NCBI GenBank assembly: GCA_040218735.1
Contig: JAVJQW010000017.1
Coordinates: forward strand, 288,001-352,000
Length of the DNA: 64,000 bases
Direction of reading: 5' to 3'
Source of the DNA: Deltaproteobacteria bacterium
Lineage (GTDB): Bacteria; Myxococcota; Kuafuiibacteriia; Kuafuiibacteriales; Kuafuiibacteriaceae
Shown here: positions 1 through 22,744 of the stretch, one piece after another
Layout of the letters: the number at the start of each line of letters is the position of its first letter
How positions within the stretch are numbered: position 1 is the first letter of the stretch
Notes under the pieces: generated by a model
The model's database searches: none
What the model was told of the DNA's origin: nothing
Seen by the model: only the letters and a program-made list of their open reading frames with translations
Position numbers and translations under genes: made by a program

Positions 1-126
1 GCGCAGCTCGAGCGGCAGCTCGAAGCGATGCAAGCCGCCTTGCAGGCCGAGCTCACGGAAGCGGAGCTGTCCGGCTACGACATGGGCGAGCTGGATCCCG
101 AGGACGACCCGGGGGCCGGTTACTAG
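1..126 (+). CDS. sctL: 3' end of T3SS stator protein SctL/FliH-like (partial)
   Basis: Frame 1 reads AQLERQLEAMQAALQAE...GY*. This resembles the FliH/SctL C-terminal motif, and its stop overlaps the GTG of sctN. Confidence 0.6.
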   Translation, partial: AQLERQLEAMQAALQAELTEAELSGYDMGELDPEDDPGAGY

Positions 127-1445
127 TGGTCGCCGCCCCGATCGACTTCTCTCGATACGCGCGCCGGGTGCGCAAGACGCGCTTCACGCGCGTGCGCGGT
201 CGCGTGACGGAGATGACCGGCCTGATCATCAAGGCCGCGGTCCCGGGCGTGCGCATCGGGGAGCTCGTGGAGATCGTCAACCCGACGCACAGCCTGCAAG
301 CCGAGGTCGTCGGCTTCCGCGACAAGGAAGTGATGTTGATGCCCTTCGGGTTCCCGGAGGGCGTCGGTCCGGACTCGGAGGTCGTGCCCTACGGGCGGCC
401 GTTCGAAGTGCGCTGCGGCGAGGGTCTGCTCGGTCACGTCGTCAACGGTCTGGGCCAGCCGATCGACGGCGCGAGCCTCAGCGAGATCCGCGGGCTCGAG
501 GACTGGGCCGTGGAACGCACGCCGCCCGATCCGCTGGATCGTGAGCGCGTGCTGGAACACATCGCGTTCGGCGTGCGCGCGATCGACGGGCTGCTGACGA
601 TCGGTAAAGGTCAGCGCGTCGGGCTGTTCGCGGGCTCCGGTGTCGGTAAGTCGACCTTGATGGGGCAGATCGCCCGAAACACCGAGGCCGAGATCGTCAT
701 CTGCTGTCTGATCGGCGAGCGTGGTCGTGAGGTGAAGGACTTCATCGAGGAGTCGCTCGGTGAGGAGGGGATGAAGAAGTCGGTGGTGGTCGTGGCGACC
801 TCCGACGAGTCCTCGCTCGTTCGTCAGAAGTCGGCGTTCGTCTCCACCGCGATCGCGGAGTGGTTCCGCGACCAGGGCGCGCGGGTGTTGTTGATGATGG
901 ACTCGACGACGCGCTTCGCGCGTGCGCAGCGCGAGATCGGCTTGGCGGTCGGTGAGCCGCCGGCGCGCCAAGGTTATCCGCCGTCGGTGTTCTCGCAGCT
1001 GCCTCGGTTGTTGGAGCGCACGGGCAACTCGTCGAAGGGATCGATCACGGCGCTGTACACCGTCCTCGTCGCGGGCGGTGACATGGAAGAGCCGATCTCC
1101 GACGAGGTCCGCGGTATCCTCGACGGCCACATCATCCTCAACCGTGCGCTCGGCGCGCGGAACCACTGGCCGGCGATCGACATCCTGCCGTCCCTGTCGC
1201 GTGTCGCGACGGGCATCATCGCCCCCGAGCACCGCGAAGCGGCGGCGAAGCTCCGCGAGGTGCTCGCGACGTACGAGAAGCAGCGCGACCTCATCCTCCT
1301 CGGCGCGTACCAGTACGGCACGGACCCGGCGACCGACTACGCGATCGACAAGATCGACATGGTCGAGGCGTTCCTCCGGCAGCGCACCGAGGAGAACTCG
1401 CCGTTCGAAGAGTCGATCCAGATGCTGGTCGGCTTGTTCAACTGA
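126..1445 (+). CDS. sctN: T3SS ATPase SctN (FliI/YscN family)
   Basis: Walker A GSGVGKST, LIGERGREV, MDSTTRFARAQREIGL, GSITALYTVL and ILDGHIIL motifs. Confidence 0.96.
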   Translation: MVAAPIDFSRYARRVRKTRFTRVRGRVTEMTGLIIKAAVPGVRIGELVEIVNPTHSLQAEVVGFRDKEVMLMPFGFPEGVGPDSEVVPYGRPFEVRCGEGLLGHVVNGLGQPIDGASLSEIRGLEDWAVERTPPDPLDRERVLEHIAFGVRAIDGLLTIGKGQRVGLFAGSGVGKSTLMGQIARNTEAEIVICCLIGERGREVKDFIEESLGEEGMKKSVVVVATSDESSLVRQKSAFVSTAIAEWFRDQGARVLLMMDSTTRFARAQREIGLAVGEPPARQGYPPSVFSQLPRLLERTGNSSKGSITALYTVLVAGGDMEEPISDEVRGILDGHIILNRALGARNHWPAIDILPSLSRVATGIIAPEHREAAAKLREVLATYEKQRDLILLGAYQYGTDPATDYAIDKIDMVEAFLRQRTEENSPFEESIQMLVGLFN

Positions 1446-1456: not shown

Positions 1457-1942
1457 TTGGCGAAGTACCGACTCCAGACCCTCCTCGAGATCCGCGAGCG
1501 CGCGGAGGAAGACGCCAAGCAGGCGTTCGCCGCCGCGATGGCGCAGCTCAAGCAGGAGCAAGATCTCTTGCAAGAGCTGAAGGACGAGCTCGAACGCATG
1601 ATCGAGGACCGTCACCGCCGCCGCGAGGAGTACGCGAACAAACTCGCGTCGGGGGAGATGAAGGTGACGGACCAGGCCGCCGCCTACCGCTTCATCGACC
1701 GCCTCAAGGAGAAGGAAGTCGAGCAGAAGGGGCGCATCGACGCGCAACGCGAGAACGTGCGCGAAGCCGAAAAGCACATGAAGCGCGCACAGGACGCGCT
1801 CATCCAGGCGACCCAGGACCTCAAGGCGCTGCAGAAGCACAAGGAGAACTGGGAGGCGCAGGTGAAAAAGGAACGCGCCATGCGCGAGGCCGAGCAGCTC
1901 GACGAGATCGCGCAGACGATCTACCAGCAGCGGAACAAGTAG
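1457..1942 (+). CDS. sctO: T3SS stalk protein SctO/FliJ-like
   Basis: 161-aa coiled coil directly after the ATPase, with YRLQTLL at the N-terminus and EQLDEIA near the C-terminus. Confidence 0.8.
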   Translation: MAKYRLQTLLEIRERAEEDAKQAFAAAMAQLKQEQDLLQELKDELERMIEDRHRRREEYANKLASGEMKVTDQAAAYRFIDRLKEKEVEQKGRIDAQRENVREAEKHMKRAQDALIQATQDLKALQKHKENWEAQVKKERAMREAEQLDEIAQTIYQQRNK

Positions 1943-2003: not shown

Positions 2004-2927
2004 TCAAGGGAGCTCGGAGACCACCACGCGGTAGTCCTGGCCGGCCGTCACGAGGTGGCCGCGGTGGAATGCGGCCGCCGTGACGTCGCGTCCACCGTGC
2101 ACCACGAAGGACGCGACGCGCTGACGCGCCTTCACGTCGATCACCGCGACCTCGCCGCCCGGCACGCCCACGGCGACACGCTGCGCATCGATGAACACCG
2201 GAGCGCTCCACGGGCGCTCGACCGTCCCCCGCGTCGCGTCGCGAACCACGACGTTGCCCTCCGGGGAGAGGTTCGTCTCGAAGGCGCCGTCGAAGCCGAA
2301 CACCGTGAGGTCGCGCGCGGTGAACGCCATGAGGTCACCGGTGGGCGAGGTGGCGATCGCGCTCATGCCGTCGGTGGGTTCCGCGATCTTCGGGCCTTCG
2401 ACACGGACGAGGTGATCACCTTCCAGCGCCGCGTACGCCACGTGGGAGCCGCCCTGGCGGACCGCCGCGCAGACCAGGCGGGTGCCGTCGAAGGCGAGCG
2501 AGACGTTGCGCTCGCCGCCGAAGCTCTCGAGCGCGACGGTCTCGTCGCCGAAGAGCCAGAGGATCTCTGCGTCCCCGACCGCCGCGACGCGGTCGCCGAC
2601 GAAAGTCACCGCCTGCACCTCGTGGCCGGCGGGTTTGGCGATGATCCGGACGCGCTCGCCGGCTTCGACATCCCACACCTCGATGTCCCCCGCGCCCACG
2701 ACGACCGCGCGGCGACCGTCGAACGCGCAGTCGTGCACGATGTCGAGATCACACTCGAGGCGGTGACGAAGCGTGAAGTCGTCGCCCCACACGAAGAGCG
2801 TCCCGTTGGAGTCGGCGCCGACGAGCGTCGTGCCGTCCTCGGAGAAACGGAGCGCGACGATGTGCTCGACGTCGTCTTCGATGACCCGACCCACGTTGGA
2901 CGTGACCTTAGCAGCTACGAAATTCAT
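2004..2927 (-). CDS. WD40-like beta-propeller protein, putative immunity protein
   Basis: Repeated blade motifs (LFVWG, IEVWDVEAG, AVTFVG, LVTAGQDYRVVV). Starts 10 bp after the toxin stop, with a GAGGG ribosome-binding site. Confidence 0.6.
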   Translation of the reverse strand: MNFVAAKVTSNVGRVIEDDVEHIVALRFSEDGTTLVGADSNGTLFVWGDDFTLRHRLECDLDIVHDCAFDGRRAVVVGAGDIEVWDVEAGERVRIIAKPAGHEVQAVTFVGDRVAAVGDAEILWLFGDETVALESFGGERNVSLAFDGTRLVCAAVRQGGSHVAYAALEGDHLVRVEGPKIAEPTDGMSAIATSPTGDLMAFTARDLTVFGFDGAFETNLSPEGNVVVRDATRGTVERPWSAPVFIDAQRVAVGVPGGEVAVIDVKARQRVASFVVHGGRDVTAAAFHRGHLVTAGQDYRVVVSELP

Positions 2928-2937
2928 TGCGGATCCC

Positions 2938-5900
2938 TCACTGGTGGAAGACTTCGATCTGGACGTTCGGATAGTCCGTCCGGAACTTCGACATCACGCG
3001 CTGACACGACGGGCACGGCGGCAGCTCCGTGAAGATCCGCAGCCGCGCGTCGGCGCCCTTCGGCAGCTTCGACAGCGCATCGTTCACCAACCCCATCAAC
3101 CGCACCTCGGAGTCGTTCATGCGCGACATCTTGTGCTGCCCGGGCACGTCCTCCAGCACCCGCGCCTCCGCCTCGTACGGGTTCCCGGGCACCCCTTCAT
3201 CGGGACCGCCACCGCTCCGACGCGGACCGATCGGCTGCCGCACACCGTCGACCTCCAGCTCCGCGTACGCCCGGTTCGGCTTCTCACCGTCCGGGAGCTT
3301 CAGCTTCTTCACCTCCTCGACGGGGTTGCGGTCGAAGGCGCCAGGACGTGCGTCCGAGATCGGCGATACCTCGATGCCGGCGGTCTTGCGGATCGACTCG
3401 TACATCGCCTGCTGCGACGCCTTGTACTCGTCCATGAACGCCTGACGCGTCGCCTTCTCGTTGGCCTCCCACGTCTCCTTCGCGCGCTGCGCCTGCGCGA
3501 GCTCCTCGTCGGAGAGCCGGCCCGGCGGGCGCTTGGGTTTGTCACCCATCGTCCCGTACTCGGTCGCGAGGCGGCGGCTCTTCTCACTCGCGCTGAGGAA
3601 CTCACGCGCGGCGGATGCGTTGGCGTCCGTCGGGTTCTGCTCGACGAGTTTCTTTGCGAGGCGGACGTCCTCCGCCATGCCCTCGACGCGCTTGCGCTGA
3701 CTGGCCGCCTGTTTGCCGGTGTGTGGCCACTGATCGAGCGCCCGGTCGAGATCCTTCCCGGCGACGTCGAGCTGTTTCAGGATGTCGTCGGCGAAGGTCG
3801 ACGGCTTGAGCTTCGCGCGCTCCGGAGCGTCGAGCTTCTTGGGCGCCGGTCCGTCGACGTCCGCCTTCGCCTTACCGCGCCACAGGCGCCCCAGCCCGTT
3901 CGTCGCGCCCTGCGACAGCGGGTTGAGGATCGCGCCGAACGCAGCGCCGCGGAGCCCGTTCATGTTCGCTTCGCTGAGACTCTTGCCGTCGAGCAGCGAG
4001 TTGGAGGTCCCGACGATGTAACCATCGACAGCGCCCTCGCCGATCGTCGTGCCGCCCCAGATGCCGGCGCGTGTGAGCATCGAGACGCTCTGCCCGGTTG
4101 CCAGCTTCGTCGCCTGGTTCGCGAGCATCCGCTGCGCGGCCTGACGCGCGAGCATGTTCGTGCCGGTCGCCGACAGCCCGTTGATCCCACCCTTGAGCAG
4201 ATCGAGGGCGACGTTCCCATCGTACTCGCCGCTCCCGGTCCATGCGTCGAGGCCCTTCGTCCCGACCTTCGTGATCGCACCCGCCGCCGCGCCGACGAGC
4301 AGCGACGCACCACCGGTGAACGGCGCCGCCGCGGCCGCGGTGAGCGCGACGCCCACGGATGCGAAGTCCGAGATTCCTTCCACCCAGTTGCTCTGCGACT
4401 TCTGGAAGCGCTGGATGTGATCCGGGACCGCCTGAATCTTGTCGTTCAGGTTCGTGACGCGGTCGCGGTACGCCTTCACGAAGTCTTCGTGCGAGCCCTT
4501 GAAGTTCGCGAGGTTCTCGACGTCGCGACGCGCGCGGTACGCGTCGTGAATCGTTCGCACGACCGCGTTGCTCCCGAGCTCGGAGTCGATCAGCCACCCA
4601 TCCTTGCTGCCGAGGTTGTTCTTGATCGCATCGGCGAGGTCACCGACGACCCCCTGCTCGCGCAGGATGCGGTCGAACGTACGGTCGAGCCGGTCGACCT
4701 CCTTGCCCACGTTCTCGACGAGGCTCTTCCGCAGCTTCCCCTCGAGCTGCTCCACGGAGAACCGCGTGTAGTCCTCGCTGACCTGCGCGTGCTGTGCGTC
4801 GGACAGGTCGTCCATCGACTTCTTGAGGTAGGGGATCGGGTTGTTCGGCTCGGCGCGCGCGGCCTTCATCCGCTCCGCGATGTCCGAGTCCTCGAGCCCC
4901 GCGGCGCGCATCTCACGCTCGTCGCGGTAGTACAGCTCGGAGGTCGGCGCGGGAGACTTCACCTCTGGCGCCGTCCAGGTCGGCGCCGCCTTCCGCTCGC
5001 CGAACAGCCCGGAGTCGAGTGAGAAGTCGTGTTTCTTGCTCGGGTGGCAGTCGTAGCACTTCTCGCCGGTCATGAGGCGCGACAGCTGCGCCGGGTCGAG
5101 CTGCGGACGCTGAGCTGCTTCGTGCTGCTGTACCCGCTCGCGGAATCCTTCGAACGAGTTGGGATCGCGATCGAACAGCTCTCCGTTGTCGCGTTTGTAG
5201 CCGTCGATCTCCGACAGCGCGCGGAAGCGGTCGTAGCTACTGACCTTGGAGATGTCCTTGCCGGCGACGTCGGCGAGGAACGCTTCGCGGTCGACGCCGT
5301 AGAACGGGCTGTCGTCGCCCCAACCGTTCTTCGTGTACTCACTGTCGAGGCGCGCGTGGTGCGGACGAATCTTCTTGTCGAGCTCCTTCAGGCGGAAGTT
5401 CGCGACGTGATCGTCGTAGACCTGCCGTTGCTCGGCGGTCATCTGCTCCGGCTGGATCTTCAGGCGCTGCCGCGGGTCGCCGTTCGACAGCTCGAGCCGG
5501 AAGCGCAGCGCGCTCTCGTCCTGGTAGCGCTTCGCGAGCTGGTCATACTGCTCGGTGCCCTTCCGCACGCTGGGGTGATCGGTGCGGATCTTGTTGTCGA
5601 TCGCGGTGTCGAGGCGTTCGCGAGCGCCGGCGTGGATGTCGCGGAGGGTGTTGGCCTGCGTGAAAGGCGACGACAGCGAGAACGGCTCGGTCTTCTTGTC
5701 GGGGTGGCAGTCGTAGCACTTCTCGGTGTTGGCGAAGATGTTCCGGCGATCGATCCGGTCGAGCCGGTCGTCCGGCTCGACCGCGGTGTCCTTCGACGCC
5801 CACTTCGCCGGGTCGAAGAGCCGCGCCTGCTCTTCGCGTGAGTAGAACAGGTCGTCGTGCCCGGGCTGCACGCCGGTGACCGGGTCGTAGGTGTTCGCGT

Positions 5901-6981
5901 CCGCCGGGCGATGCGCACGGATCGTCGACAGCGCCGCCTTCGAGTCGCGGTGGGAGAGGTCGGAGACCGGCGTCTGCTCGAGCTGCGAGATGAACTGCTG
6001 CGTCCCCTCGGACATCGGGCGCCGCACGAGGTCGTGGGCGAGCTGCTGCATGCGCTCGCGCGACTCGGGCGCGAGCTCCTTCGCGCGCGAGGCCTCCTGC
6101 AGGCGGTTCGACTCGCGCAGCCGGAAGTCACGCTCGTACTTACGCGCCTGCGGCATCTCGTCGGCGGCGAGGCGATCGGAGTAGCGCTGCGCCTCTTCGG
6201 CGCGCTCCACGGGGCTCATGCCCTGGACGGTCGATTCGAAGCCACGGTCGAGCTCGGCCCGGACCGCGTCGTGGTTCACCGGCTTCGGGCCGACGCGTTC
6301 CGTAGGCCGGAACTTCGCGAGCGCCGAGAAGTCGAGCGGGGTGAAGTCCTCCTTCTTGTCCGGGTGGCAGTCGCGGCAGTCGACGCTGTTCCGCAGCGGA
6401 TCCCGGAACGGGTTCTTGGTGAGGGACTGAAGGGCGTCGGTCGGCTGCGGCTTCTCCTTCGTCTTCGCGAGGTAGTCCTCGAGGCTGCGGATCTGTCGAT
6501 CCATCGTGTCCTTGAACTCGGCGTCGTTGTTGCGGCGGTGGCGGTCGTGGAGCTGTTGGTAGGTCGGGAGTGCATCACTCGGCGTGGTGTCGCTCCGCGT
6601 CTTCTCCTCCTCGGCCGGCGCCCGGGTTTGGACGGGCCGCCCCTCGGCGAGGTGTGTCTCGGTTCGGCGGAGCTCCGTCGCTTCGTCCGTGACCTGACGT
6701 TCCGGTTGCTCGCGAACCTTCGGCCGCTCTGCGCCGGTGGTGTGATCCTGTTTCGCGACGCGTTGGTCCGCATCGTTGGCGGGCGGCTGGTAGTCGTCGC
6801 CCTTCGCCTCCGGCGTGCCCTTCGCGCCTCCCGCGCCGCCCTGCCCCGCTTTGTCGCCCGACTGCGGCGGTGGCGGTGGTTTGGTCTGCTCCTCTTGTTT
6901 CTTCTTCTCGATGCGCTGGAGCGCGAGCGCGATCCGGTCTTCTGCGGTCCCACCGAGGGGAAGTGCATTCACGGGCGGCAT
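2938..6981 (-). CDS. Large polymorphic-toxin-like protein: three CxxCH repeats, a hydrophobic segment and a C-terminal nucleic-acid deaminase (BURPS668_1122/Toxin-deaminase-like)
   Basis: C-terminus RMNDSEVRL...IFTELPPCPSCQRVMSKFRTDYPNVQIEV; hydrophobic segment AAAAAPFTGGASLLVGAAAGA. The start was moved to ATG 6981 because the longer ORF overlaps sctP antisense. Confidence 0.8.
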   Translation of the reverse strand: MPPVNALPLGGTAEDRIALALQRIEKKKQEEQTKPPPPPQSGDKAGQGGAGGAKGTPEAKGDDYQPPANDADQRVAKQDHTTGAERPKVREQPERQVTDEATELRRTETHLAEGRPVQTRAPAEEEKTRSDTTPSDALPTYQQLHDRHRRNNDAEFKDTMDRQIRSLEDYLAKTKEKPQPTDALQSLTKNPFRDPLRNSVDCRDCHPDKKEDFTPLDFSALAKFRPTERVGPKPVNHDAVRAELDRGFESTVQGMSPVERAEEAQRYSDRLAADEMPQARKYERDFRLRESNRLQEASRAKELAPESRERMQQLAHDLVRRPMSEGTQQFISQLEQTPVSDLSHRDSKAALSTIRAHRPADANTYDPVTGVQPGHDDLFYSREEQARLFDPAKWASKDTAVEPDDRLDRIDRRNIFANTEKCYDCHPDKKTEPFSLSSPFTQANTLRDIHAGARERLDTAIDNKIRTDHPSVRKGTEQYDQLAKRYQDESALRFRLELSNGDPRQRLKIQPEQMTAEQRQVYDDHVANFRLKELDKKIRPHHARLDSEYTKNGWGDDSPFYGVDREAFLADVAGKDISKVSSYDRFRALSEIDGYKRDNGELFDRDPNSFEGFRERVQQHEAAQRPQLDPAQLSRLMTGEKCYDCHPSKKHDFSLDSGLFGERKAAPTWTAPEVKSPAPTSELYYRDEREMRAAGLEDSDIAERMKAARAEPNNPIPYLKKSMDDLSDAQHAQVSEDYTRFSVEQLEGKLRKSLVENVGKEVDRLDRTFDRILREQGVVGDLADAIKNNLGSKDGWLIDSELGSNAVVRTIHDAYRARRDVENLANFKGSHEDFVKAYRDRVTNLNDKIQAVPDHIQRFQKSQSNWVEGISDFASVGVALTAAAAAPFTGGASLLVGAAAGAITKVGTKGLDAWTGSGEYDGNVALDLLKGGINGLSATGTNMLARQAAQRMLANQATKLATGQSVSMLTRAGIWGGTTIGEGAVDGYIVGTSNSLLDGKSLSEANMNGLRGAAFGAILNPLSQGATNGLGRLWRGKAKADVDGPAPKKLDAPERAKLKPSTFADDILKQLDVAGKDLDRALDQWPHTGKQAASQRKRVEGMAEDVRLAKKLVEQNPTDANASAAREFLSASEKSRRLATEYGTMGDKPKRPPGRLSDEELAQAQRAKETWEANEKATRQAFMDEYKASQQAMYESIRKTAGIEVSPISDARPGAFDRNPVEEVKKLKLPDGEKPNRAYAELEVDGVRQPIGPRRSGGGPDEGVPGNPYEAEARVLEDVPGQHKMSRMNDSEVRLMGLVNDALSKLPKGADARLRIFTELPPCPSCQRVMSKFRTDYPNVQIEVFHQ

Positions 6982-7206
6982 GTCGCGCAAGATGAGTTGC
7001 AATGCCCGGCCCGCCGCCCAAGCTCGCGAACTTCGGTGTGTCGGCGGCGGACCTGTAGCGCGCGCCCCTCGGACCTGCGGCGTCGGCGCCCGTGGGGCGA
7101 CGTGGGCAGATGAAGGCCTTGGTTGGACCCGCACCGACGTCCCCAACGGAAAATGCTCGTGAAACCGGGGTCTTGGACCGTTCGTCCAGCGCGCCGAGAT
7201 TCGGAA

Positions 7207-7234
7207 GCAACGAAGCACAACGAACGATCGATAA
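7207..7234 (+). promoter_or_regulatory. Putative sigma28-like promoter of sctP
   Basis: GCAA-N16-ATCGATAA, compared with the FliA consensus TAAA-N15-GCCGATAA. A GGGAG RBS and ATG 7258 follow. Confidence 0.45.
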
Positions 7235-7257
7235 TCCCCATCAAAGGGAGCCGTTGC

Positions 7258-8139: not shown

Positions 8140-8424
8140 GACCCACCACCCGCGCCCCCCCAAAAGCCGAAAACACGCGCTCCGTCACATCGCCCGGCTG
8201 CGAATTCGCGCAGCGACGTGACGTGCGCAACACCGCGCGATTTCTCGCCGTTTCGGCGCAACCTCCGCAGCCCTCGAACCGATACACACCAACGATACGA
8301 TCAAGGTGACGGGTGAGTTCTTCGAGCTCACACGTCGCAACGGATCGGTTCCACCAAAACGTAACGAGCTTTGCCGGGAGAGGTGCGTCCGCACCGATCC
8401 GGCGATGGGATGGAGGGGTGCGCC

Positions 8425-9120
8425 ATGCGCATTCGATGGACACTTGTACTCACCACGATCGTGCTCCCTGCGATCGGACTCACCGCGTGCGGGGGTGAGG
8501 TCGACATGACTTTGCACGAGCCGCTCGCGGTCGCGCCGCTCAGTATCAAGCCGGGTTGTTTCAGCCCGATCGTCACGCTCGCGCCGTGTGACGACGAGTC
8601 GCCCGACGAATGCGAACAGTCACGCGAGGCGAACGCGACGATGCAGGCGAACATCTCCGAGATCACCACGCAGCTCCGATCCGTCGTCGAAGTCATCCGC
8701 GCCGCGCCGAACGACGCGCTGTGGTCCGCGACCTATACCTGGCCGCAGCCGCACGAGCTGACTTCGACCTTCACGATCACCGCCGAGAAGCGCGGCACGC
8801 CGAGCGGCGCGTTTACGATCTCGGCGCACGACGTCGGTACTTATGCACCCGGGCTCGACCTCCCGACCGAGATCGACGGCTTCCGCGAGATGTACGGCTT
8901 CTACACGCCCAACTTCACGATGGTCGACGTCGGCGACGGCGTCCTCCGCTGGACGGAGCACGCCCTCACCGCCGGCTCGTTCTACCGGGGCTGCGACCCC
9001 GAGAGGAACGTGAGCTTCGACCAACGCTTCCTGGACGACGGCACGTTCGATCTCTTCTGCTGGGAAAACGACGGCGGCAACGCCGTCGACTGCACCACGA
9101 TCGACCTGTGGCCGAAATGA
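8425..9120 (+). CDS. Hypothetical lipoprotein
   Basis: MRIRWTLVLTTIVLPAIGLTAC lipobox; GGAGG RBS. Confidence 0.65.
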   Translation: MRIRWTLVLTTIVLPAIGLTACGGEVDMTLHEPLAVAPLSIKPGCFSPIVTLAPCDDESPDECEQSREANATMQANISEITTQLRSVVEVIRAAPNDALWSATYTWPQPHELTSTFTITAEKRGTPSGAFTISAHDVGTYAPGLDLPTEIDGFREMYGFYTPNFTMVDVGDGVLRWTEHALTAGSFYRGCDPERNVSFDQRFLDDGTFDLFCWENDGGNAVDCTTIDLWPK

Positions 9121-9121
9121 C

Positions 9122-9206
9122 TCGGCAAGGGCGCGCAGCGACCGCGCAGCGTGGCGTACCCGCGCGAAGGGCCGCAGGCCAGCTTGCCTGGCCGATAACG
9201 GCCAAG
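9122..9206. repeat. Palindromic intergenic element or bidirectional terminator between convergent genes
   Basis: Inverted repeats GGCAAG...CTTGCC, GGCC-GCA-GGCC and TGGCCG-ATAA-CGGCCA. Confidence 0.35.
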
Positions 9207-9212
9207 ATCGAA

Positions 9213-10499
9213 CTAACGCGCCGTCACGAGCATGTTCGCGACGCACATCTCGTCGCCGGTGCCTTCACCCCAATTCACGTCGACCGGCTCCTGTCCGCGG
9301 TCCTGGTTCGCCGCCGAGTTGTCGAAGGTGCAGTTCAACATCAGCGCGTCGCCGTCCAGGACTTCGAGCGGCTCCGACAACACGTACTGGCGCTGCCAGT
9401 TGAAGTCCCAGTTCTGAATGTTGAGGAAGTTCGTCTCGAACCCGCGCCGCACGCGCGACACACGTCCGACCTCGCCGAGCTGGTGCATGTGGAACATCAC
9501 CGCGTGCACCTCGAACCCATCGTCGAACGGGAGCGTCTCGCCCGCGACGAGATCGAAGAAGCCCCGCGGGTCCTCCTCGATCTCGTGCTCGACCGCAGAC
9601 TCACCCGCGGGGATCTGCATGAAACCGAGCGGCCACGACACGTCGAGGAACGGCGCGTACCAACCTTCGCGCTCCACCGAGTCCTCGAGCGAGAAGACCA
9701 ACCGACTCTGGTCCGGCGCCGGGTCGTCGCCGACCACGTTGTAGTGCATCTGGATCACCACGGTGGACCCCGGCTTCACGCGGATGCCGATGCCGTTCGG
9801 GTACACGTTGCCGCTCTGCCCCGGCAGCCACGCGCCCAGCTGCACGATCGGGATCGCTTCGCGCCCGCCCGACGGTCCGCCGAAGCACTCGTAACCCGGG
9901 CGCTCGTCTTCCTCGTTCCAGACGAACGGCTTCTCCGCATTCTCCGGCGGCAGGATGAACACGCCGACGTGGTGCACGATCTCCAAGTTCCCCGGCATCA
10001 CCGACAGCGCCGTCACGAACTTGTCCGCGGTCTCCGTCCACCGCACCGGGAAACAACGGTAGTCGTCGGGCCGCCCCGTCGGGACGTACGGTTCGGGGAG
10101 CTGCAGCTCCAGGTCGACGCCCGGGAACGCGGGCTCGGTCGGCGGGAGCGCGTCTCCCGGCGACGACGCGTCACCCATCTCCATCCCTTGATCGACCCAG
10201 TCGACGATCGTCTGGATCTGCGCGTCGGTGAGCGAGACGTCTCCGTCGTAGGTCACGTCGGACGGACCGGCCGACCACGGCGGCATCTGACGCGACGTCA
10301 CCGCCATCGCCACCGCGGGACCGAACGCCTTCACCTTCTCGAAGTCGTCGAGCCCGAACGGCGCGATCGCCCCCTCGGCGTGGCAGCTCGTGCAACGCCC
10401 CTCGACGATCGGGCGGACATCCCGGTAGTACGTCGGTGCCCCCTCGGAGCACGCGACGAGCGCGAGGGCGGCCACCGGGACCAACGATGAACGGGACAC
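9213..10499 (-). CDS. Copper type II ascorbate-dependent monooxygenase-like lipoprotein with an N-terminal cytochrome c motif
   Basis: LVAC lipobox, CTSCH heme motif and copper-ligand motifs HH, QMHYN, HMH and DEMC. Confidence 0.8.
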   Translation of the reverse strand: MSRSSLVPVAALALVACSEGAPTYYRDVRPIVEGRCTSCHAEGAIAPFGLDDFEKVKAFGPAVAMAVTSRQMPPWSAGPSDVTYDGDVSLTDAQIQTIVDWVDQGMEMGDASSPGDALPPTEPAFPGVDLELQLPEPYVPTGRPDDYRCFPVRWTETADKFVTALSVMPGNLEIVHHVGVFILPPENAEKPFVWNEEDERPGYECFGGPSGGREAIPIVQLGAWLPGQSGNVYPNGIGIRVKPGSTVVIQMHYNVVGDDPAPDQSRLVFSLEDSVEREGWYAPFLDVSWPLGFMQIPAGESAVEHEIEEDPRGFFDLVAGETLPFDDGFEVHAVMFHMHQLGEVGRVSRVRRGFETNFLNIQNWDFNWQRQYVLSEPLEVLDGDALMLNCTFDNSAANQDRGQEPVDVNWGEGTGDEMCVANMLVTAR

Positions 10500-10549
10500 G
10501 GGCGGGAGCTTGCCGGGGCTGGCAAGACCTGAACACCGGTCGACGATCG

Positions 10550-11059
10550 GTGCTCCCGATCCTGCTGACCCTCGCCGCGTGCTCCGGAAACTCCGCGCCC
10601 CCCGAGCCCGTCGCGCTGATCGATCACGCCGCCTGGGTGACGGGGCGCGTCGAGGTCGATCCACAAGGCCTGCACGCGCCGGATCCGATCACCTGCGCGG
10701 CCGGCACCTACCACGTGGACGGGCTCCCGCCGTTCGAGACCTTCGAGGTCACTACGGGCGACTGCAACTTCCTCACGGCCTCCCAACGGACGCTCGCCCC
10801 CGTCGAAGCCGGCGACGCGCTCCGCCTGATCGTCTGGCACCTCGACCTCGACGCGACGCTCCCCGGCCCCGCGCACGCCGCAATCTCGATCGACGGCGAC
10901 ATCCTCTGGGAGCTGAACGTCGACGTCCCGTCGGACGCGGCGCTCTACGATGTCCGAATCGACGCTCCACGTGCGTTCACCCGGGACGCCGACATCGTCT
11001 TCCACGTGCACAACCACGGCACGAACGAGTGGAACATCCAGACCGTCGAGCGGCGCTGA
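10550..11059 (+). CDS. Hypothetical lipoprotein (HVHNHG motif)
   Basis: LAAC lipobox; His-rich C-terminal motif; divergent from the monooxygenase. Confidence 0.6.
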   Translation: MLPILLTLAACSGNSAPPEPVALIDHAAWVTGRVEVDPQGLHAPDPITCAAGTYHVDGLPPFETFEVTTGDCNFLTASQRTLAPVEAGDALRLIVWHLDLDATLPGPAHAAISIDGDILWELNVDVPSDAALYDVRIDAPRAFTRDADIVFHVHNHGTNEWNIQTVERR

Positions 11060-11109
11060 TTTTCGCGCGGACCTTGAATCTTGGCGCCGTAGTCCGGCAC
11101 AACTCGAAT

Positions 11110-14004
11110 GTGCTCCGCCGGCTCGCTCCCCTGCTCGTCCTCGTCACCGGGTGTGACTGCGGCGCGGGGACCTTCGCGAACGTCTACCCCGACATTCGTG
11201 TCCACCCCGAGATGATCGACTTCGGTGAGGTTCGGATCGGTGAGGACGCCCGAATCGTCACCGTCGGCGTCGCAAACGCCGGCACCGCTACGCTCCACGT
11301 GGCCGCGGTGCAACGCGCGGAGGGCACCAGCGATGTGCTGACGTTCGACACCGCGGGCTTCGACGTCGCGATCGACGCGCAGCACGACCGCGAGGTGACG
11401 CTGACGCCGCTCGAAGTCGGCGTCGTCACCGGCGCGCTGATCATCGTGTCCGACGATGCCGACCAACCCGAAGTCACCGTCCCGATCCAAGGCACGATCC
11501 TCCCCGCCGCGGGGCCGCGGCTGTCGATGTGCGTCGAAGCGGAAGGCCTCGACCGCACCTGCGGCGCGGACCTGATCGCGGAGCTTGGCGAGGTCCTCTT
11601 GGGCACCTCGCGGGAGGCGAAGGTCACCTTCGTCAGCGAGGGGACGGAGCCCCTCACGGTCGCCGCCGCGCTCGCGGGATCCAGCCACGCGAGCTACTCG
11701 GCGTCGGAGCTCGTCACGACCCTCGCCCCCTCCGAGACCGCGACGCTCGCGGTGACGTTCGCACCGGTCGACACCGGACTGGAGCGCGCTCAGCTCGTCG
11801 TCGAGACCAACGATCCCAACGCCGTCTTCACACAGATCCGGTTCCGCGGGACCGGGGTCGAGACGGGGCTCTGCGCCAACGCCGAGTCGCTCGACTTCGG
11901 GTCCGTCGAGATCGGTGACTACGCGGAGCGGCAACTCACGATCGAAAACTGCGGTGCCGCCCCCATCACGCTCGCGGCGCTCGACGTGCTCGACGCCGAC
12001 GTGTTCACGATCGAGCGGAGCGACGCGCTCCCACTTCGGCTCGAGGTCGGCGCGACCACCGAGGTCACGGTGCGCTACGCGCCCACCGACGGCCAACCCG
12101 ACAGCGGACGGCTCCGGATCACCTCGGAGGGCCCTAGCGTCTTCGTCACGCTGGAAGGCCGGCCGGATGCGTGCACCCTCGTCGCGCTCCCCTCGCAGAT
12201 CGACTTCGGCACGACCAACGTCGCGACCGCTGAGGGGCGCACGCTGGTCCTCGCCAACACGGGGACGCGCGTGTGTGAGATCCTCGCCTTCACCTTCAGC
12301 TCGACGACGAGCACGGAGTTCTCCGCGTCGTTCCTCCCGGAGGTGCCGCGCGCGGTTGATCCAGGCGGCACCGAGACCGTCGAGCTTCGCTACGCACCGG
12401 TCGACCTCGGCGTCGACAACGGCGCGTTGATCGTCACGACCAACGCCGGAGACGTCGTGGTCGACATCCTGGGTGACAGCCGCAACGCGAGTGGCTGCAC
12501 ACTCCTCGCGACGCCGAACACACTCAACTTCGGTGCGGTGGCCCACGGGTCCTCGTCGCTCATGGGCTTTTCGGTGCTGAACGTCGGCGTCGACTTCTGC
12601 CGAATCGTCACCGTGACGATGGACGCCGGTTCGTCGCCGGACTTCGCCCTCGAGGGTCTCATGATCCCGCGTGGGCTCAATCCTCAGGAGCAGACGTCCG
12701 TGATGGTGCGGTACACGCCCACCGTGTCGTCGGCGACCGGGACGGTGCTCATCGCCGGGCCAGCGGGGACGCAGCGGGTCCAAGTCACGGGGACCGGCAC
12801 CGGCGCGCGGCTGTGTGTTCAACCCAACCCGATCGTGTTCGGCACACGACCATCGAGTTCGGTGACTTCGCGCGCCGTCGATCTCACGGCGTGCGGTTCA
12901 CAGGACGTCGTGGTCTCGGCGTTGTCGCTTCCCGCGCCGACGACCCCCGAGCTATCCATCTACATGCCGCCGACGATGCCGTTCACGATCACGGCAGGAC
13001 AGTCACGCCCGATCGAGCTCCGCTACGCCGGGACGAACGAGGGCCGCGACGACGGGCTGCTCCAGGTCGACAGCAACGACGCCATCGCGCCTTCGCAGCA
13101 GCTCGACATCATCGCCCACACTTCGGCGGCGCCGTGCGGCGACATCCAGGGGCGCATCTGCGATCTCTCGCAGTCCGGGCCGGTCGTCGGCGCGCTCGTC
13201 TACGTCGACACGCCGGGCGGCCGGATCCAGACGACCACGAACGCCAACGGCGACTACGTCCTGACGTGTGTCCCCGTCGGTGGGCACACCGTGCACGCCG
13301 AGAAGGGGCAGTGGAGCGTGTCGTCCTCAGCGGTGGTCGACGCCTACGTCACCACGGTGCTCCCGGGGCAACAGTGTCTCGAGCCGACGAGCGCAAACGT
13401 CGCGGTCATTCACGGCGCGTACGACAACATCGAGAACATCCTGGCGACGAACGGCGTGCCCTACGACTTCTACATGGACGCGGCCACGCTGGTCGGGAAC
13501 CCGACGCTCCTCGGTACCTACGACATCCTCTTCATCAACTGCGGCTGGGACGAGACCATCGGGCTGACCCCACCCCACCGCGCGAACATCGAGGCGTTCG
13601 TCGACGGCGGCGGCTCGCTGTACACGTCCGACTACGCGTACGACGTCATCGAGATGATCTGGCCCGACGCGATCGACTTCTACGGAGACGACACCGTACA
13701 GAACGCCGCGCAGGCCGCGACGTTCTTCCGAGGCTACGTCGGTATCGTTCACCCCGGGCTGTCGATAGCGCTCAACCACCCCTCCCAGATCTACATCGAC
13801 GCGAGCTACGTCGGGACCGTCTCGGCCGGTCCGGGCACGACCGTGTACCTCGAAGGACCACGCCCCGGCGTGGGCCCCGCGAGCCCGTTCATGGTGAGCT
13901 TCACGCCGAGCCCGACGTCGGGGCGTGTCTTCAGCACCGACTTCCACAACAACGGCGTCGGCGCGATCGCAGCCGTGTTCGACTGGCTGCTGTTGAACCT
14001 CTGA
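11110..14004 (+). CDS. Surface lipoprotein with tandem ASH/choice-of-anchor D Ig-like domains, a carboxypeptidase-regulatory-like domain and a C-terminal alpha/beta domain
   Basis: VTGCDC lipobox; about six repeats of 'IDFG..V....N.G...L.....P...G.L.V.SND'. Confidence 0.75.
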   Translation: MLRRLAPLLVLVTGCDCGAGTFANVYPDIRVHPEMIDFGEVRIGEDARIVTVGVANAGTATLHVAAVQRAEGTSDVLTFDTAGFDVAIDAQHDREVTLTPLEVGVVTGALIIVSDDADQPEVTVPIQGTILPAAGPRLSMCVEAEGLDRTCGADLIAELGEVLLGTSREAKVTFVSEGTEPLTVAAALAGSSHASYSASELVTTLAPSETATLAVTFAPVDTGLERAQLVVETNDPNAVFTQIRFRGTGVETGLCANAESLDFGSVEIGDYAERQLTIENCGAAPITLAALDVLDADVFTIERSDALPLRLEVGATTEVTVRYAPTDGQPDSGRLRITSEGPSVFVTLEGRPDACTLVALPSQIDFGTTNVATAEGRTLVLANTGTRVCEILAFTFSSTTSTEFSASFLPEVPRAVDPGGTETVELRYAPVDLGVDNGALIVTTNAGDVVVDILGDSRNASGCTLLATPNTLNFGAVAHGSSSLMGFSVLNVGVDFCRIVTVTMDAGSSPDFALEGLMIPRGLNPQEQTSVMVRYTPTVSSATGTVLIAGPAGTQRVQVTGTGTGARLCVQPNPIVFGTRPSSSVTSRAVDLTACGSQDVVVSALSLPAPTTPELSIYMPPTMPFTITAGQSRPIELRYAGTNEGRDDGLLQVDSNDAIAPSQQLDIIAHTSAAPCGDIQGRICDLSQSGPVVGALVYVDTPGGRIQTTTNANGDYVLTCVPVGGHTVHAEKGQWSVSSSAVVDAYVTTVLPGQQCLEPTSANVAVIHGAYDNIENILATNGVPYDFYMDAATLVGNPTLLGTYDILFINCGWDETIGLTPPHRANIEAFVDGGGSLYTSDYAYDVIEMIWPDAIDFYGDDTVQNAAQAATFFRGYVGIVHPGLSIALNHPSQIYIDASYVGTVSAGPGTTVYLEGPRPGVGPASPFMVSFTPSPTSGRVFSTDFHNNGVGAIAAVFDWLLLNL

Positions 14005-14412
14005 TCAGTGCGTGATCGTCGGCTCGGTGTTCTTCGCCTCGTCGATCCAACCCTGAACGACCGACGCCGCCGGCGTCGCGTTCGCGAGGTTCTTCTCGGC
14101 GTTCACTTCCTTCATCTTCGCGGCGAGGTTCTCGGCGTTGCGGTGGCGCAGCTCCTTCACGGTGTCGACGCCGGAGGCCTCGAGCAGCTCGGAGTACTGC
14201 GGGCCGATGCCGTCGATGCGCATGAGGTCGGCGAGGTTCGCCCACGTGAGGATGCGCTTCTCGGAGATGTCGGTCTTCTCCGCGATCGCCTTGCGGCCCT
14301 TCGCGTCCGCGCAGTGCGCGAGGAAGTCGTCCGTGGTCTTGATGCCCGCGGCCGCGAGCTTCTCGCCGTACGCGGGTCCGATGCCTTCGATTTCTTCGAT
14401 CTTGTACGTCAT
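14005..14412 (-). CDS. DUF4332 helix-hairpin-helix protein
   Basis: IEEIEGIGPAYGEKL and ADLMRIDGIGPQYSELLEASGVDTVKEL; GGAGG RBS. Confidence 0.85.
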   Translation of the reverse strand: MTYKIEEIEGIGPAYGEKLAAAGIKTTDDFLAHCADAKGRKAIAEKTDISEKRILTWANLADLMRIDGIGPQYSELLEASGVDTVKELRHRNAENLAAKMKEVNAEKNLANATPAASVVQGWIDEAKNTEPTITH

Positions 14413-14457
14413 TCGATAGTCCTCCAGGGCGGGTTGGATAGCGGTATGCTGCGCGCC

Positions 14458-15261
14458 ATGCAACCACCCCTCGACGGCACCGTCGTCATCACCGGCGCCT
14501 CGTCGGGCATCGGGCGCGAGATGGCGCGACAGCTCGCGTCGACGGCGAAGCGCCTCGTGCTGGTCGCGCGACGCGCGGACCGATTGGAGGCGCTCGCTGA
14601 CGAGCTGCGTCGTGACGACCTCGTCGTCGATGTCGAAGCGGTCGATCTCGCCGATCTCGAAGCGACCGAAGCGCTCGCGGTGCGCCTCCTCGAGCGCGGC
14701 GTCGACGTCCTGATCAACAACGCGGGCCTCGGCGACATGGCGCTGTACGACCAGTGCGAGTGGGAGCGCATCACCCGCATGAACCGCGTGAACGTCGACG
14801 CGCTGATGCTCCTGACCCACCGCCTCCTCCCGCCGATGGTCGCGAAGGGCAGCGGCGGCATCCTGAACGTCAGCTCGGGGTTCGGGATGACGCCGATGCC
14901 GGTGATGTCCACCTACGTCGCGACGAAGCACTACGTCACCGCATTCACCGAGTCGCTCCGCATGGAGATGGCCGGGACGGGCGTCATCGTGTCGCAGGTC
15001 TGTCCGGGGCCGGTCGCGACGGAGTTCGAGCAGGTGGCCGGCAACCCGTTCGACATGTCGACCCCCAAGGCCATCACCCTGACCCCCGAGGCGTGCGCCC
15101 GCGCCGCGCTGGCGGGGTTTCGACGCCGAAAGGCGCTGATCGTGCCCGGCTTCGTCATGGGCGTGGTGATGGCGATGGGCCGCATGACCCCCCGCTGGGT
15201 GTTCCGCGCCATGTACGGCCCGTTGGGCCGAGCGGCCCGTAAACGCTTGGCCTCCGGCTGA
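14458..15261 (+). CDS. Short-chain dehydrogenase/reductase
   Basis: TGASSGIG, NNAG and YVATK motifs. Confidence 0.92.
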   Translation: MQPPLDGTVVITGASSGIGREMARQLASTAKRLVLVARRADRLEALADELRRDDLVVDVEAVDLADLEATEALAVRLLERGVDVLINNAGLGDMALYDQCEWERITRMNRVNVDALMLLTHRLLPPMVAKGSGGILNVSSGFGMTPMPVMSTYVATKHYVTAFTESLRMEMAGTGVIVSQVCPGPVATEFEQVAGNPFDMSTPKAITLTPEACARAALAGFRRRKALIVPGFVMGVVMAMGRMTPRWVFRAMYGPLGRAARKRLASG

Positions 15262-15299
15262 CTTGCGCCAGATCGGCCCCAGGGGTACCAACAAGGCTC

Positions 15300-16940
15300 T
15301 TGAACGCACGTCCACCACCTCCGCCGCCGGCGTCGATGGTCGATGTGTCGGCCTACACCCGGCAGTCGCGCACCTACGAGCCCAACGACCCGGAGATCCG
15401 CGGCAAGAAGGTCCGGCGGTTTCGGCTCGACGAGCTCGAGCGGTTCCCGCGCGAGGTGCGCGACATCCACCGCGCGCTGTTTCGGATCATGCCGGAGCTG
15501 GTCTTTGCGGACGACTTCGTCCCGAAGGTCCGCAAGGTGCTCCAGCAGTACACCGAGATGGACATCGACCTGTGGATGCACTCGATGCGGGTCGTCGGGC
15601 GCACCAAGCTCCGGTCCCTGATACCGGGCGCCTCGTTCATCGCGATCGTCGGGCTGCCGCCGCTGCACGAGAAGGTGCTCGTCGAGATCGATCTGAGGTT
15701 CTGCTACCGCGTCGTCGACGCCCTCCTCGGCGGGCGGGGCGTCACGGTCGACATCCACCGGCCGCTGACGGAGATCGAGCACGGCGTCTTCTCCTACCTC
15801 CTCCTCAAGGTGCTCCAGCTCTTCTACGGCGACCTCGCCAACCCCGAGCAGATGGGGGTGCGGCTCGAGGACATGCGCAACGACCTCAAGAGCTGCGCCG
15901 ACATCGTCCGGCACGACGACTTCTGGCTCGTCGCGTCGTGGAAGATGAACTTCGACCTCGACGTCGGCTACGTCCGCGCGCTGATGCCCACTTCGCTCGC
16001 GCGTAAGATCGTCGACGAGCACCCGCCGCCCGGCTCGGCGCTGCAACAGCGCATGCACGACCGCATCCGGCAGCGCATGTACCGCCTCGCCGGCGTGACG
16101 GTGGAGGCGCCGGTGGAGATCGGGCGCATCGAGCTGTCACCCGACGACGTCGAGCAGCTCGATCCGGGCGACATCATCCTCCTCGAGAACTGCAGCGTGC
16201 AGCTGTCCGAGGAGGGGGTGTACGGGACGGCGGTGATGACCGTCGGGCTCGGTGACAACGGCGTCATCCACGGCAACGTCGGAGCGGGCGGGCACTACGG
16301 CAACCTCGTCTTCGAGGTGACGCAGCTCGAGATGCGTCCGCAACCCAAAGAGCACGACCCCCAAATCATTCACGGAGAGCACGGGAACCCAGAAGAGGTC
16401 ATGGCCGAATACGAAGCACCGCCCCCCGGTGAAGAGGGGTACGAAGAGGACTACTACGACGAAGCCGACGACGGCTCGACGACGCCGGACGACGTGCTCG
16501 ACGAGGACTGGGGCATCGACGACGAGGACCACGGCGAGGACGAAGAGTACGGCGACTACGAAGAGGGCTACGAGGAAGGGTACGAAGAGGGCTACGCCGA
16601 AGAGGGGTACGAAGAAGGCTACGCCGAAGACGGCCAGCAGCAGGAGTACTACGACGAGGCGAACGCCGAGGACGTGCCGATCGACGACTCCGACAACCTC
16701 ATGGAGGCGGAGCCGCTCCTCGGGGACATGCCGATTCACGTCGTCGTGGAGCTCGGACGCGTTCAGCTGACGGCAGACGAGGTCATTCGCCTCCGCGCCG
16801 GTCAGCTGATGGAGCTCGGACGCTCGCCCGCGGATCCCGTAGACTTGGTCGTGAACGGCAAGCTCCTCGCGAAGGGTGAGCTCGTCGAGATCGAGGGCGC
16901 GCTGGGCGTGAAGATCCTCAACCTCGTGAAGGAGACGTGA
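15300..16940 (+). CDS. sctQ: T3SS cytoplasmic ring protein SctQ (FliM/FliN-like) with an acidic insertion
   Basis: FliM-like RPLTEIE; two SpoA domains (LDPGDIILL; VDLVVNGKLLAKGELVEIEGALGVKI). Confidence 0.88.
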   Translation: MNARPPPPPPASMVDVSAYTRQSRTYEPNDPEIRGKKVRRFRLDELERFPREVRDIHRALFRIMPELVFADDFVPKVRKVLQQYTEMDIDLWMHSMRVVGRTKLRSLIPGASFIAIVGLPPLHEKVLVEIDLRFCYRVVDALLGGRGVTVDIHRPLTEIEHGVFSYLLLKVLQLFYGDLANPEQMGVRLEDMRNDLKSCADIVRHDDFWLVASWKMNFDLDVGYVRALMPTSLARKIVDEHPPPGSALQQRMHDRIRQRMYRLAGVTVEAPVEIGRIELSPDDVEQLDPGDIILLENCSVQLSEEGVYGTAVMTVGLGDNGVIHGNVGAGGHYGNLVFEVTQLEMRPQPKEHDPQIIHGEHGNPEEVMAEYEAPPPGEEGYEEDYYDEADDGSTTPDDVLDEDWGIDDEDHGEDEEYGDYEEGYEEGYEEGYAEEGYEEGYAEDGQQQEYYDEANAEDVPIDDSDNLMEAEPLLGDMPIHVVVELGRVQLTADEVIRLRAGQLMELGRSPADPVDLVVNGKLLAKGELVEIEGALGVKILNLVKET

Positions 16941-18763: not shown

Positions 18764-18765
18764 CC

Positions 18766-20075: not shown

Positions 20076-20085
20076 GATCGAGAAC

Positions 20086-20655: not shown

Positions 20656-20668
20656 TCCTCGCTTGTTT

Positions 20669-20688
20669 ATAAATGAGCATTCATTTAT
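20669..20688. promoter_or_regulatory. TetR operator (inverted repeat)
   Basis: Perfect palindrome ATAAATGA-GCAT-TCATTTAT between the divergent TetR and reductase genes. Confidence 0.75.
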
Positions 20689-20698
20689 CTACAACCTC

Positions 20699-21238: not shown

Positions 21239-21314
21239 TCGCCGACCGCGACGCCGTCGAGCTCGTGCACCGCGTCCTTGCCGGCGGCGGACGCTTCCGA
21301 TCTCGACGAGCTGC

Positions 21315-21558: not shown

Positions 21559-21570
21559 TCGGGGCACGGC

Positions 21571-22734: not shown

Positions 22735-22744
22735 GGTCGTCTCG

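Follow-up and report, generated by a model that had tools for sequence, protein, structure and literature searches.

The predicted toxin and propeller genes

The subject of this analysis is a pair of adjacent genes in a 64,000-nucleotide stretch of DNA (the window) from a Deltaproteobacteria bacterium of the phylum Myxococcota (GenBank assembly GCA_040218735.1, contig JAVJQW010000017.1, positions 288,001 to 352,000), whose genome measures 11.6 Mb at 68% GC. The pair lies on the minus strand between two type III secretion system (T3SS) genes, sctO and sctP, and encodes a large protein that ends in a predicted deaminase domain, P0001, and a beta-propeller-like protein, P0002, a candidate immunity protein. 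The features of the pair, in coordinates of the window, are as follows.

2938-6981 (-): toxin gene P0001, 1347 codons plus stop; stop codon at 2938-2940, ATG at 6981
6412-6981 (-): P0001 residues 1-190, N-terminal region rich in Pro, Ala, Thr and charged residues, without a hydrophobic signal peptide
4927-6411 (-): residues 191-685, long-form portion of the carrier, which contains three C-x-x-C-H-P motifs
6364-6378, 5704-5718 and 5044-5058 (-): the CxxCHP motifs, at residues 202, 422 and 642
3862-4926 (-): residues 686-1040, conserved carrier core; first half long helices, second half Gly/Ala-rich and hydrophobic
3382-3804 (-): residues 1060-1200, predicted helical-bundle pre-toxin region
2941-3381 (-): residues 1201-1347, predicted deaminase domain, BURPS668_1122 clade
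3106-3123 and 3004-3018 (-): predicted active-site residues R1287, D1290 and E1292, and C1323 and C1326
2928-2940 (-): junction of P0001 and P0002; TGA at 2940-2938, 10-nucleotide spacer, P0002 ATG at 2927
2004-2927 (-): candidate immunity protein P0002, 307 residues, beta-propeller-like (WD40-type), without an N-terminal hydrophobic signal

The ATG at 6981 is supported as the start of P0001 because four homologues (P0004, P0005, P0006 and P0007) open with the identical N-terminus MPPVNA. Conservation of residues 1-190 was limited to the four closest homologues in the alignment of the family (A1). Neither the Pfam matches of P0001 at E ≤ 1 nor its N-terminal hydropathy revealed a recognised trafficking domain or signal, and no Rhs, VgrG, PAAR, LXG or haemagglutinin region was present among the 11 matches listed at that threshold, in agreement with a preliminary description of the locus made from the sequence alone. 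The sequence features named in that description (the motifs, the hydrophobic segment, the linked gene and the flanking genes) were all found at the positions it gave.

The tightly linked, WD40-like downstream gene that had been reported is P0002, which begins 10 nucleotides past the toxin stop. A Shine-Dalgarno-like word, GAGGGA, overlaps the stop codon and precedes the P0002 ATG, and the tight spacing fits co-translation of the toxin and its partner. Comparison of P0002 with Pfam returned 19 to 20 beta-propeller or WD40 families at E ≤ 0.14 (best E 1.2e-8), none of them at its curated cut-off; PF00400 scored 24.8 bits against a cut-off of 27, and models of whole propellers remained far below theirs. 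A single non-propeller family, DUF6476, occurred among the 20 Pfam matches at E ≤ 1, and Imm2, Imm3 and SUKH were absent from these 20. Two homologues of P0002, P0016 and P0018, carry precomputed Pfam labels that include PF00400. No close propeller paralogue was found in the same genome.

The predicted deaminase domain and its candidate propeller partner

The C-terminus of P0001 matched Pfam PF14424 (Toxin-deaminase, BURPS668_1122 family) at 51 bits, above the cut-off of 29.6 (E 2.2e-13), in the hidden Markov model comparison that the preliminary description had proposed as a check. The match spans residues 1281-1346, corresponding to profile positions 80-144 of 146. It contains the helix 2 motif R1287-M-N-D1290-S-E1292-V-R1294, in which the word RMNDSE occupies residues 1287-1292 (nucleotides 3106-3123), and the helix 3 motif C1323-P-S-C1326, part of the word PCPSC at residues 1322-1326 (nucleotides 3004-3018). 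The Arg, Asp and Glu of the first motif and both Cys of the second were invariant across nine aligned sequences, at identities down to 20%. The passages of Iyer et al. 2011 (PMC3239186) on the BURPS668_1122 clade give its signature as 'RxxDxExK in Hel-2', with DxE replacing H/CxE, followed by CxxCxS in helix 3, after which truncation is frequent. P0001 resembles the clade in the R-x-x-D-x-E of helix 2, with Asp in place of the His or Cys zinc ligand, in the C-x-x-C of helix 3 and in ending soon after helix 3; the earlier statement that RxxDSE in place of HxE is typical of these deaminases agrees with the published signature. As in BURPS668_1122 toxins, the domain forms the C-terminus of a large protein, with an immunity-type gene immediately downstream. 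We assign it to this known clade, from which its catalytic activity is predicted. The genome holds no second PF14424 gene.

An AlphaFold2 model of residues 1060-1347 (mean predicted local distance difference test score, pLDDT, 90.3; predicted template-modelling score 0.87) showed a helical bundle at model residues 4-141 and, after it, an alpha/beta domain. The strand-helix order of deaminases was present in this domain, and a single strand after the CxxC helix ended the protein. In a Foldseek search with the model the top matches were all to APOBEC3G, AID and APOBEC3H, although weak (best E 4.9e-3), and a sequence search of the PDB with the toxin likewise returned weak APOBEC3G matches only (E 0.023). 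By VIA-align the model superimposed on DddB (9k3e_B) with Z 8.4, a root-mean-square deviation of 2.7 over 90 residues and 19% identity, and on guanine deaminase, ADAT2, TadA and blasticidin-S deaminase with Z of 7.0-7.8, while the helical bundle resembled generic bundles only. The pre-toxin region, residues 1060-1200, is common to P0012 and to P0019, a 501-residue protein with another N-terminus; as a predicted bundle it travels with the deaminase.

The available passages of PMC7901873 identify BaDTF1 as SCP1.201-like (DddA), BaDTF2 as DYW-like (SsdA) and BaDTF3 as Pput_2613-like (DddB), and the clade of P0001 is none of these three characterised families. The suggestion that the domain could be a base-editing enzyme candidate is not new for the family: in a 2023 preprint (10.1101/2023.05.21.541555) PF14424 members used as base-editor fusions are reported to deaminate cytidine in single-stranded DNA. 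On the enzyme side P0001 would therefore be a divergent member of a clade already sampled for base editing, and its added value incremental.

The association of the propeller with this domain was followed across genomes. In another genome of the same genus (G001) the order sctO, propeller and toxin C-terminus is retained, and the propeller is 71% identical to P0002. Genome G002 encodes an 821-residue toxin whose N-terminal region is different but whose linker and deaminase are the same (29% identity over 407 columns, E 2e-26). The propeller encoded after it has 31% identity to P0002 (E 4e-10). In a further case the contigs of the toxin homologue P0005 and of the propeller P0018 are equal in length (20604), and we take the two to lie on one contig. 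Identities of the toxin module and of the propeller fall in parallel across the loci, at 70%/72%, 72%/71% and 34%/31%. The partner differs where the tail differs. Downstream of a carrier homologue with a PRTase-like tail lies an open reading frame without a Pfam match at E ≤ 0.01, and hence no propeller was found beside it; downstream of a distant PF14424 toxin in genome G080 lies a SUKH-1 gene that scored exactly at its cut-off. The propeller thus follows the predicted deaminase module and not the carrier.

Two PF14424 toxins of other genomes have features of their own. The G080 protein (contig C1, locus L024, 5983-9108, minus strand) is a 1042-residue toxin from another family of the phylum with its own Ala/Gly-rich hydrophobic stretch ahead of the deaminase, and its SUKH-1 (SMI1_KNR4) reading frame lies at 5558-6148 on the same strand. 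A toxin in genome G039 is 3001 residues long, with PF14424 as its sole Pfam match.

Co-folding of the pair, which had also been suggested beforehand, gave a confident complex. In a controlled co-fold of P0002 with the toxin module the interface score ipSAE was 0.86, 0.83 and 0.86 in three runs, and the best of three controls scored 0.00. The pLDDT of the partner was at least 87 (87-89), and the runs shared at least 79% of their contacts. The mark applied to such scores was attained by 58 of 80 solved complexes and by only 2 of 110 mismatched pairs. On the toxin side the predicted interface includes N1236, S1256, G1257, R1287, D1290 and C1323, six of the 16 invariant columns of alignment A4; on the propeller side invariance holds for 13 of the 39 residues at the interface and for 51 of 268 elsewhere. 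The predicted contacts to R1287, D1290, C1323 and the S1256-G1257 loop come from propeller loops near residues 119-122, 138-142 and 156-160. We know of no solved deaminase-propeller complex that the model could have memorised. These predictions support a position of P0002 over the deaminase active site.

A partner placed in this manner would resemble those of characterised deaminase toxins. In DddA with DddI, SsdA with SsdAI, and DddB a C-terminal deaminase toxin domain is neutralised by a cognate protein that occludes either the active site or the DNA-binding surface (PMC7901873 and PMC13346905, in part); occlusion of the active site, as predicted here, is the mode given there for the immunity proteins of SsdA and of DddB. 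The fold is different, SsdAI being exclusively alpha-helical (PMC7901873, in part) and P0002 a predicted propeller. The immunity families listed for the BURPS668_1122 clade in the passages of PMC3239186 and PMC3482391 are Imm2, Imm3 and SUKH, and in those of Zhang et al. 2012 (PMC3482391) propellers appear as toxin repeats or trafficking parts and not as immunity families, the term 'WD40' being absent from them. A beta-propeller, which is not among the folds listed in these passages, would be a new immunity fold for deaminases, and the earlier remark that it is an unusual immunity protein for a deaminase accords with the same lists.

The carrier module

The part of P0001 that precedes the pre-toxin bundle is its best conserved portion in alignment A1, namely the core at residues 686-1040. 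Gly makes up 17% and Ala 16% of residues 861-1035, and the hydrophobic stretch runs from 'WVEGISD' to 'GLGRLW' (residues 866-1034, nucleotides 4386-3880), matching the segment that had been placed at about 3900-4380. Kyte-Doolittle windows of 19 residues exceed 1.0 only where they start at residues 866-893 (covering approximately 866-911), with a maximum of 1.61.

A word-based search returned six relatives of P0001, of which three, and one more that is cut at a contig end, have the entire architecture at 56-97% identity. P0008 and P0009 match P0001 over residues ~100-1035 at 39-40% identity and have unrelated C-termini, that of P0009 with a weak match to PRTase-CE. An exhaustive search with a profile built from residues 192-1040 of three sequences gave 234 representatives at E ≤ 1e-3, and the number fell to 62 at ≤ 1e-10 and to 28 at ≤ 1e-30. 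The module common to this family corresponds to residues ~686-1040, with its core at ~856-966. Many members come from low-GC metagenome organisms, in which the module lies near the N-terminus, and one from an Armatimonadota metagenome-assembled genome.

The C-termini of the family are diverse. Of the 155 stored profile-matching proteins, 69 had the end of the module intact and at least 150 residues beyond it. BLAST clustering of these tails gave 29 groups, 23 of which had a single member, and the deaminase tail occurred in four of the proteins. Pfam assigned no family at E ≤ 1e-4 to 34 of 42 carrier-family matches; the other eight bore an APH kinase, an endonuclease/exonuclease/phosphatase (EEP) domain, an ADP-ribosyltransferase (two), an ABC1 kinase (three) or a PRTase-CE tail. 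NCBIfam added weak, sub-cut-off matches to HD-type tails in three further members. By these comparisons the family bears at least 29 unrelated C-terminal tails, the pattern of polymorphic toxins.

No family model covers the module. Pfam returned none for P0001 or for 25 family members at E ≤ 1 among the best 25 of 37 families, and NCBIfam none for 14 carrier-family members and the core, its only matches over the hydrophobic stretch being weak, sub-cut-off ones to Ssp4 and PID-CTERM. A lead from the protein atlas, the PT-TG pre-toxin domain (score 0.86, rank 19), was rejected, there being no match to it in the 25 family members under the same Pfam settings. The atlas gave no usable match with residues 191-685, and a plasmid collection searched with the family member P0065 gave none. 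An AlphaFold2 model of the core was all-alpha with a pLDDT of 65.5 and had no Foldseek match in the PDB (best E 0.25); because this model is mediocre, the negative is no evidence of a new fold. The carrier architecture had been described as new, and this holds in the sense that it has no Pfam or NCBIfam model, but it is not unique to P0001 and belongs to a large uncharacterised family. On the sequence evidence the carrier core is a previously undescribed, widespread module.

In their organisation these proteins resemble CdiA, Rhs/PAAR, LXG and MafB toxins, in which a conserved N-terminal part is combined with swappable toxin domains at the C-terminus and every such domain has a dedicated immunity gene downstream. 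They differ from them in that the shared module of P0001 is internal, hydrophobic and without a family model, and no trafficking domain was found. The delivery routes listed for the BURPS668_1122 clade in the passages of PMC3239186 and PMC3482391 comprise type II, V, VI and VII secretion, SpvB and terminase-based systems, with Rhs, PAAR and haemagglutinin repeats; none of the listed routes, repeats or immunity families is present here, and their place is taken by an unmodelled helical and hydrophobic carrier and by a propeller. DddA, by comparison, is delivered by type VI secretion. An internal translocation region of hydrophobic helices occurs in diphtheria toxin (its T domain), the pore-forming colicins, CNF1 and the large clostridial toxins. 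P0001 resembles such translocating toxins by analogy only, in having a moderately hydrophobic helical region that separates a receptor or entry part from a C-terminal enzyme, and no similarity of its carrier to the diphtheria toxin T domain, colicins, CNF1 or clostridial toxins was found in sequence (Pfam) or in fold (Foldseek against the PDB).

Several further members of the family were recorded. Dozens of Lys/Asn/Ile-rich metagenome proteins (P0051-P0166) carry a well conserved N-terminal version of the module, with a 'QG-x-IGK-x-WD-x-x-KN' word, a short helical stretch and an 'AAAP-x-TGGASL' hydrophobic hairpin, followed by ADP-ribosyltransferase, HD or kinase domains. The PRTase-tailed homologue (locus L015, 5861-8857 and 8757-9338, minus strand) adjoins an extracytoplasmic function sigma factor and a fusion of a Ser/Thr kinase with WD40 repeats. 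In the genome of P0001 itself (G000, contig C8) a 1010-residue protein (locus L034, 8179-11211, plus strand) weakly matches the carrier core over profile positions 555-679 (E 4.8e-8) and is followed by an overlapping reading frame of 133 residues, neither having a Pfam family; the two may be a second, diverged toxin-immunity pair.

In the long-form region ahead of the core the motif C-x-x-C-H-P-[DS]-K-K occurs three times, at an exact spacing of 220 residues (202, 422 and 642). The C, C, H and P of the second motif are invariant in all seven long-form sequences of A1, and a self-BLAST of P0001 detected no other repeat similarity. Haem is attached to c-type cytochromes in the periplasm. The motifs resemble haem-attachment sites, yet P0001 has no export signal, and haem-related Pfam families scored below their cut-offs (21.4 against 27, and 20.7 against 24.8); a reading of the motifs as a c-type cytochrome was rejected on these grounds.

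Type III secretion genes, mechanism and alternative readings

The pair interrupts a set of type III secretion genes. Upstream of it lie sctL, sctN and sctO, and downstream an sctP-like gene, sctQ, sctR and sctV.

126-1445 (+): sctN
1457-1942 (+): sctO (YscO-like), Pfam PF16789, 89.7 bits
7258-8139 (+): sctP-like gene with a FliK/Flg_hook C-terminal domain, PF02120, 32.6 bits against a cut-off of 29.8
15300-16940: sctQ
17523-18491: sctR
35148-37307: sctV

The sctP-like reading frame is open from 7123, but its likely start is the ATG at 7258 with the word AAAGGGAG, and the same start is used in G001. The gene is divergent from the toxin gene, from which it is separated by a 276-nucleotide spacer (6982-7257). 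Orthologues of sctO were found in 16 of 20 genomes of the family, counting the present one. At ten sctO loci from other genera, sctP follows on the same strand after a gap of ~50-175 nucleotides in five, no sctP match was present within the 1.5-kb flank in the other five, and no match to the toxin or the propeller was found at any of the ten. Because sctP directly follows sctO in those five loci, the ~5-kb pair, antisense between sctO and sctP, is read as an insertion, seen only in this genus, and the earlier proposal of an insertion at this position is borne out. A recent horizontal transfer was considered on composition and rejected, since GC and GC3 of the toxin (0.675 and 0.896) and of the propeller (0.696 and 0.890) are like those of neighbouring genes.

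Long runs of unrelated genes separate the type III genes at 8371-15318 and 18500-35100. They encode, among others, Cu-monooxygenase-like, DUF4332, RibD_C-domain and ADYC-domain proteins, a TonB-dependent receptor and a 1164-residue protein with ASH/HYDIN-type Ig repeats. At 45202-51597 (plus strand) lies the gene of a 2131-residue protein that has a PilZ domain at its N-terminus and an Hsp70 domain at its C-terminus. The genome contains seven matches to the SctV/FlhA (FHIPEP) export gate (L007-L013), one of them the sctV gene at 35148-37307; six are full length, and the genome would therefore hold several type III-like gene sets.

We consider it probable that P0001 and P0002 form a two-gene polymorphic toxin-immunity module composed of a variable N-terminus, a carrier core, a pre-toxin bundle, a deaminase and a protective propeller. 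The carrier family and the immunity fold would be new and the deaminase clade is known. A hallmark of polymorphic toxins, a downstream partner that changes with the toxin domain, is seen here: the propeller accompanies the deaminase at three loci seen directly, another reading frame accompanies the PRTase-like tail, and SUKH-1 a distant deaminase. Judged by position and composition, the Gly/Ala-rich helices of the carrier core most likely insert in a membrane and aid the crossing of the C-terminus. The most likely substrate of the zinc-dependent deaminase, by its family, is cytosine in the nucleic acid of the cell that is targeted. The cytoplasmic propeller, from covariation and the co-fold, would bind the deaminase over its active site and shield the producer. 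In this genus the pair was probably inserted between sctO and sctP.

Several observations weigh against this interpretation. The covariation comprises three loci seen directly and one inferred, with the loci of P0007 and P0019 outside it. Fold and co-fold were predicted from shallow alignments (nine and six rows), and with custom alignments such as these the counts that calibrate the co-fold mark hold only roughly. The PF14424 profile was matched in its second half only, the Lys that follows the catalytic Glu in the clade is replaced by Arg in P0001, and the serine position of 'CxxCxS' is likewise Arg (C-P-S-C-Q-R). With its hydropathy peak of 1.61 the carrier segment is a borderline candidate for a transmembrane helix, and the model of the core is poor over its hydrophobic half (pLDDT 40-50). 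No secretion signal and no partner secretion gene was identified for P0001.

The location of the pair raises the possibility that P0001 is a T3SS substrate, an effector against prey bacteria or eukaryotic grazers that the propeller only holds inactive before export, and we regard this as unlikely. The pair sits between sctO and sctP with further type III genes on both sides, the arrangement is kept in a second species of the genus, and P0001 has no Sec-type hydrophobic N-terminus but a Pro/Ala/Thr/charged-rich N-terminal region. In Myxococcus, according to the passages of PMC12075869, a needle-less T3SS and the Kil pilus cooperate in the lysis of prey, and effectors are spoken of there as 'potential T3SS effectors' only. 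The present locus resembles that of the M. xanthus system (Herrou et al. 2025) in that a type III export set occurs in a myxobacterium-like host; here the toxin gene lies inside the set, and P0001 is linked to it by gene position only. Against T3SS dependence, no T3SS gene was found among the reading frames scanned within ~8-10 kb of the carrier genes at L015 and L033 or of the weak paralogue in the same genome (L034), and members of the family occur in the Armatimonadota assembly (one) and in low-GC metagenome organisms (many). Position within the T3SS set is itself weak evidence, because many unrelated genes, such as those of the TonB receptor and the RibD_C-domain protein, are interspersed. 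Homologues of SctV were present in all five carrier- or deaminase-bearing genomes tested, a result that does not discriminate. Delivery by the T3SS is possible and unsupported beyond position, because carrier loci elsewhere lack T3SS genes and the T3SS genes of the window are interspersed; it is of interest because the substrates of the Myxococcus needle-less T3SS are, in the passages cited, only 'potential' ones (PMC12075869).

A broader proposal, to which we give somewhat less credence still, is that the toxin is the first identifiable cargo of a type III apparatus in a myxobacterium-like host, an antibacterial, immunity-paired protein that crosses the target membrane by means of its hydrophobic carrier core, with the carrier family a new widespread effector class.

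It is improbable that the propeller is an accessory factor, such as an export chaperone or adaptor or a target-recognition subunit, rather than an immunity protein. Predicted binding alone cannot tell an inhibitor from a chaperone, and propellers figure as toxin repeats or trafficking parts in the passages of Zhang et al. 2012 (PMC3482391), but P0002 tracks the deaminase module and not the carrier, has no signal peptide and appears translationally coupled downstream of the toxin, and the predicted interface covers R1287, D1290 and C1323, as is described for the SsdA and DddB immunity proteins in the parts of those papers cited above. Least probable of all is that the deaminase domain is inactive, or acts on free nucleotides or another amine, and that harm, if any, comes from the hydrophobic carrier, for example through pores: inactive clade members in Perkinsus, and truncation after helix 3, are described (PMC3239186, in part), only half of the PF14424 profile was matched and the carrier core is the best conserved portion of P0001, but the zinc ligands and catalytic Glu are invariant in nine sequences down to 20% identity, PF14424 base-editor fusions are reported to deaminate cytidine in single-stranded DNA (10.1101/2023.05.21.541555, in part), and a dedicated partner is predicted over the active site, so that the activity would be dangerous to the producer.

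With the two genes read as a toxin-immunity module, a propeller predicted to plug the active site of a deaminase would be a new immunity solution in the superfamily, and the pair is a ready structural target. The toxin, placed within a type III gene set, is also a concrete candidate substrate for a myxobacterial T3SS; were the broader proposal true, the carrier family with its ADP-ribosyltransferase, kinase, HD, EEP, PRTase and deaminase tails would consist of self-translocating effectors. Defining the carrier family would permit new toxin and immunity domains to be sought systematically, and might bring to light a new delivery route.

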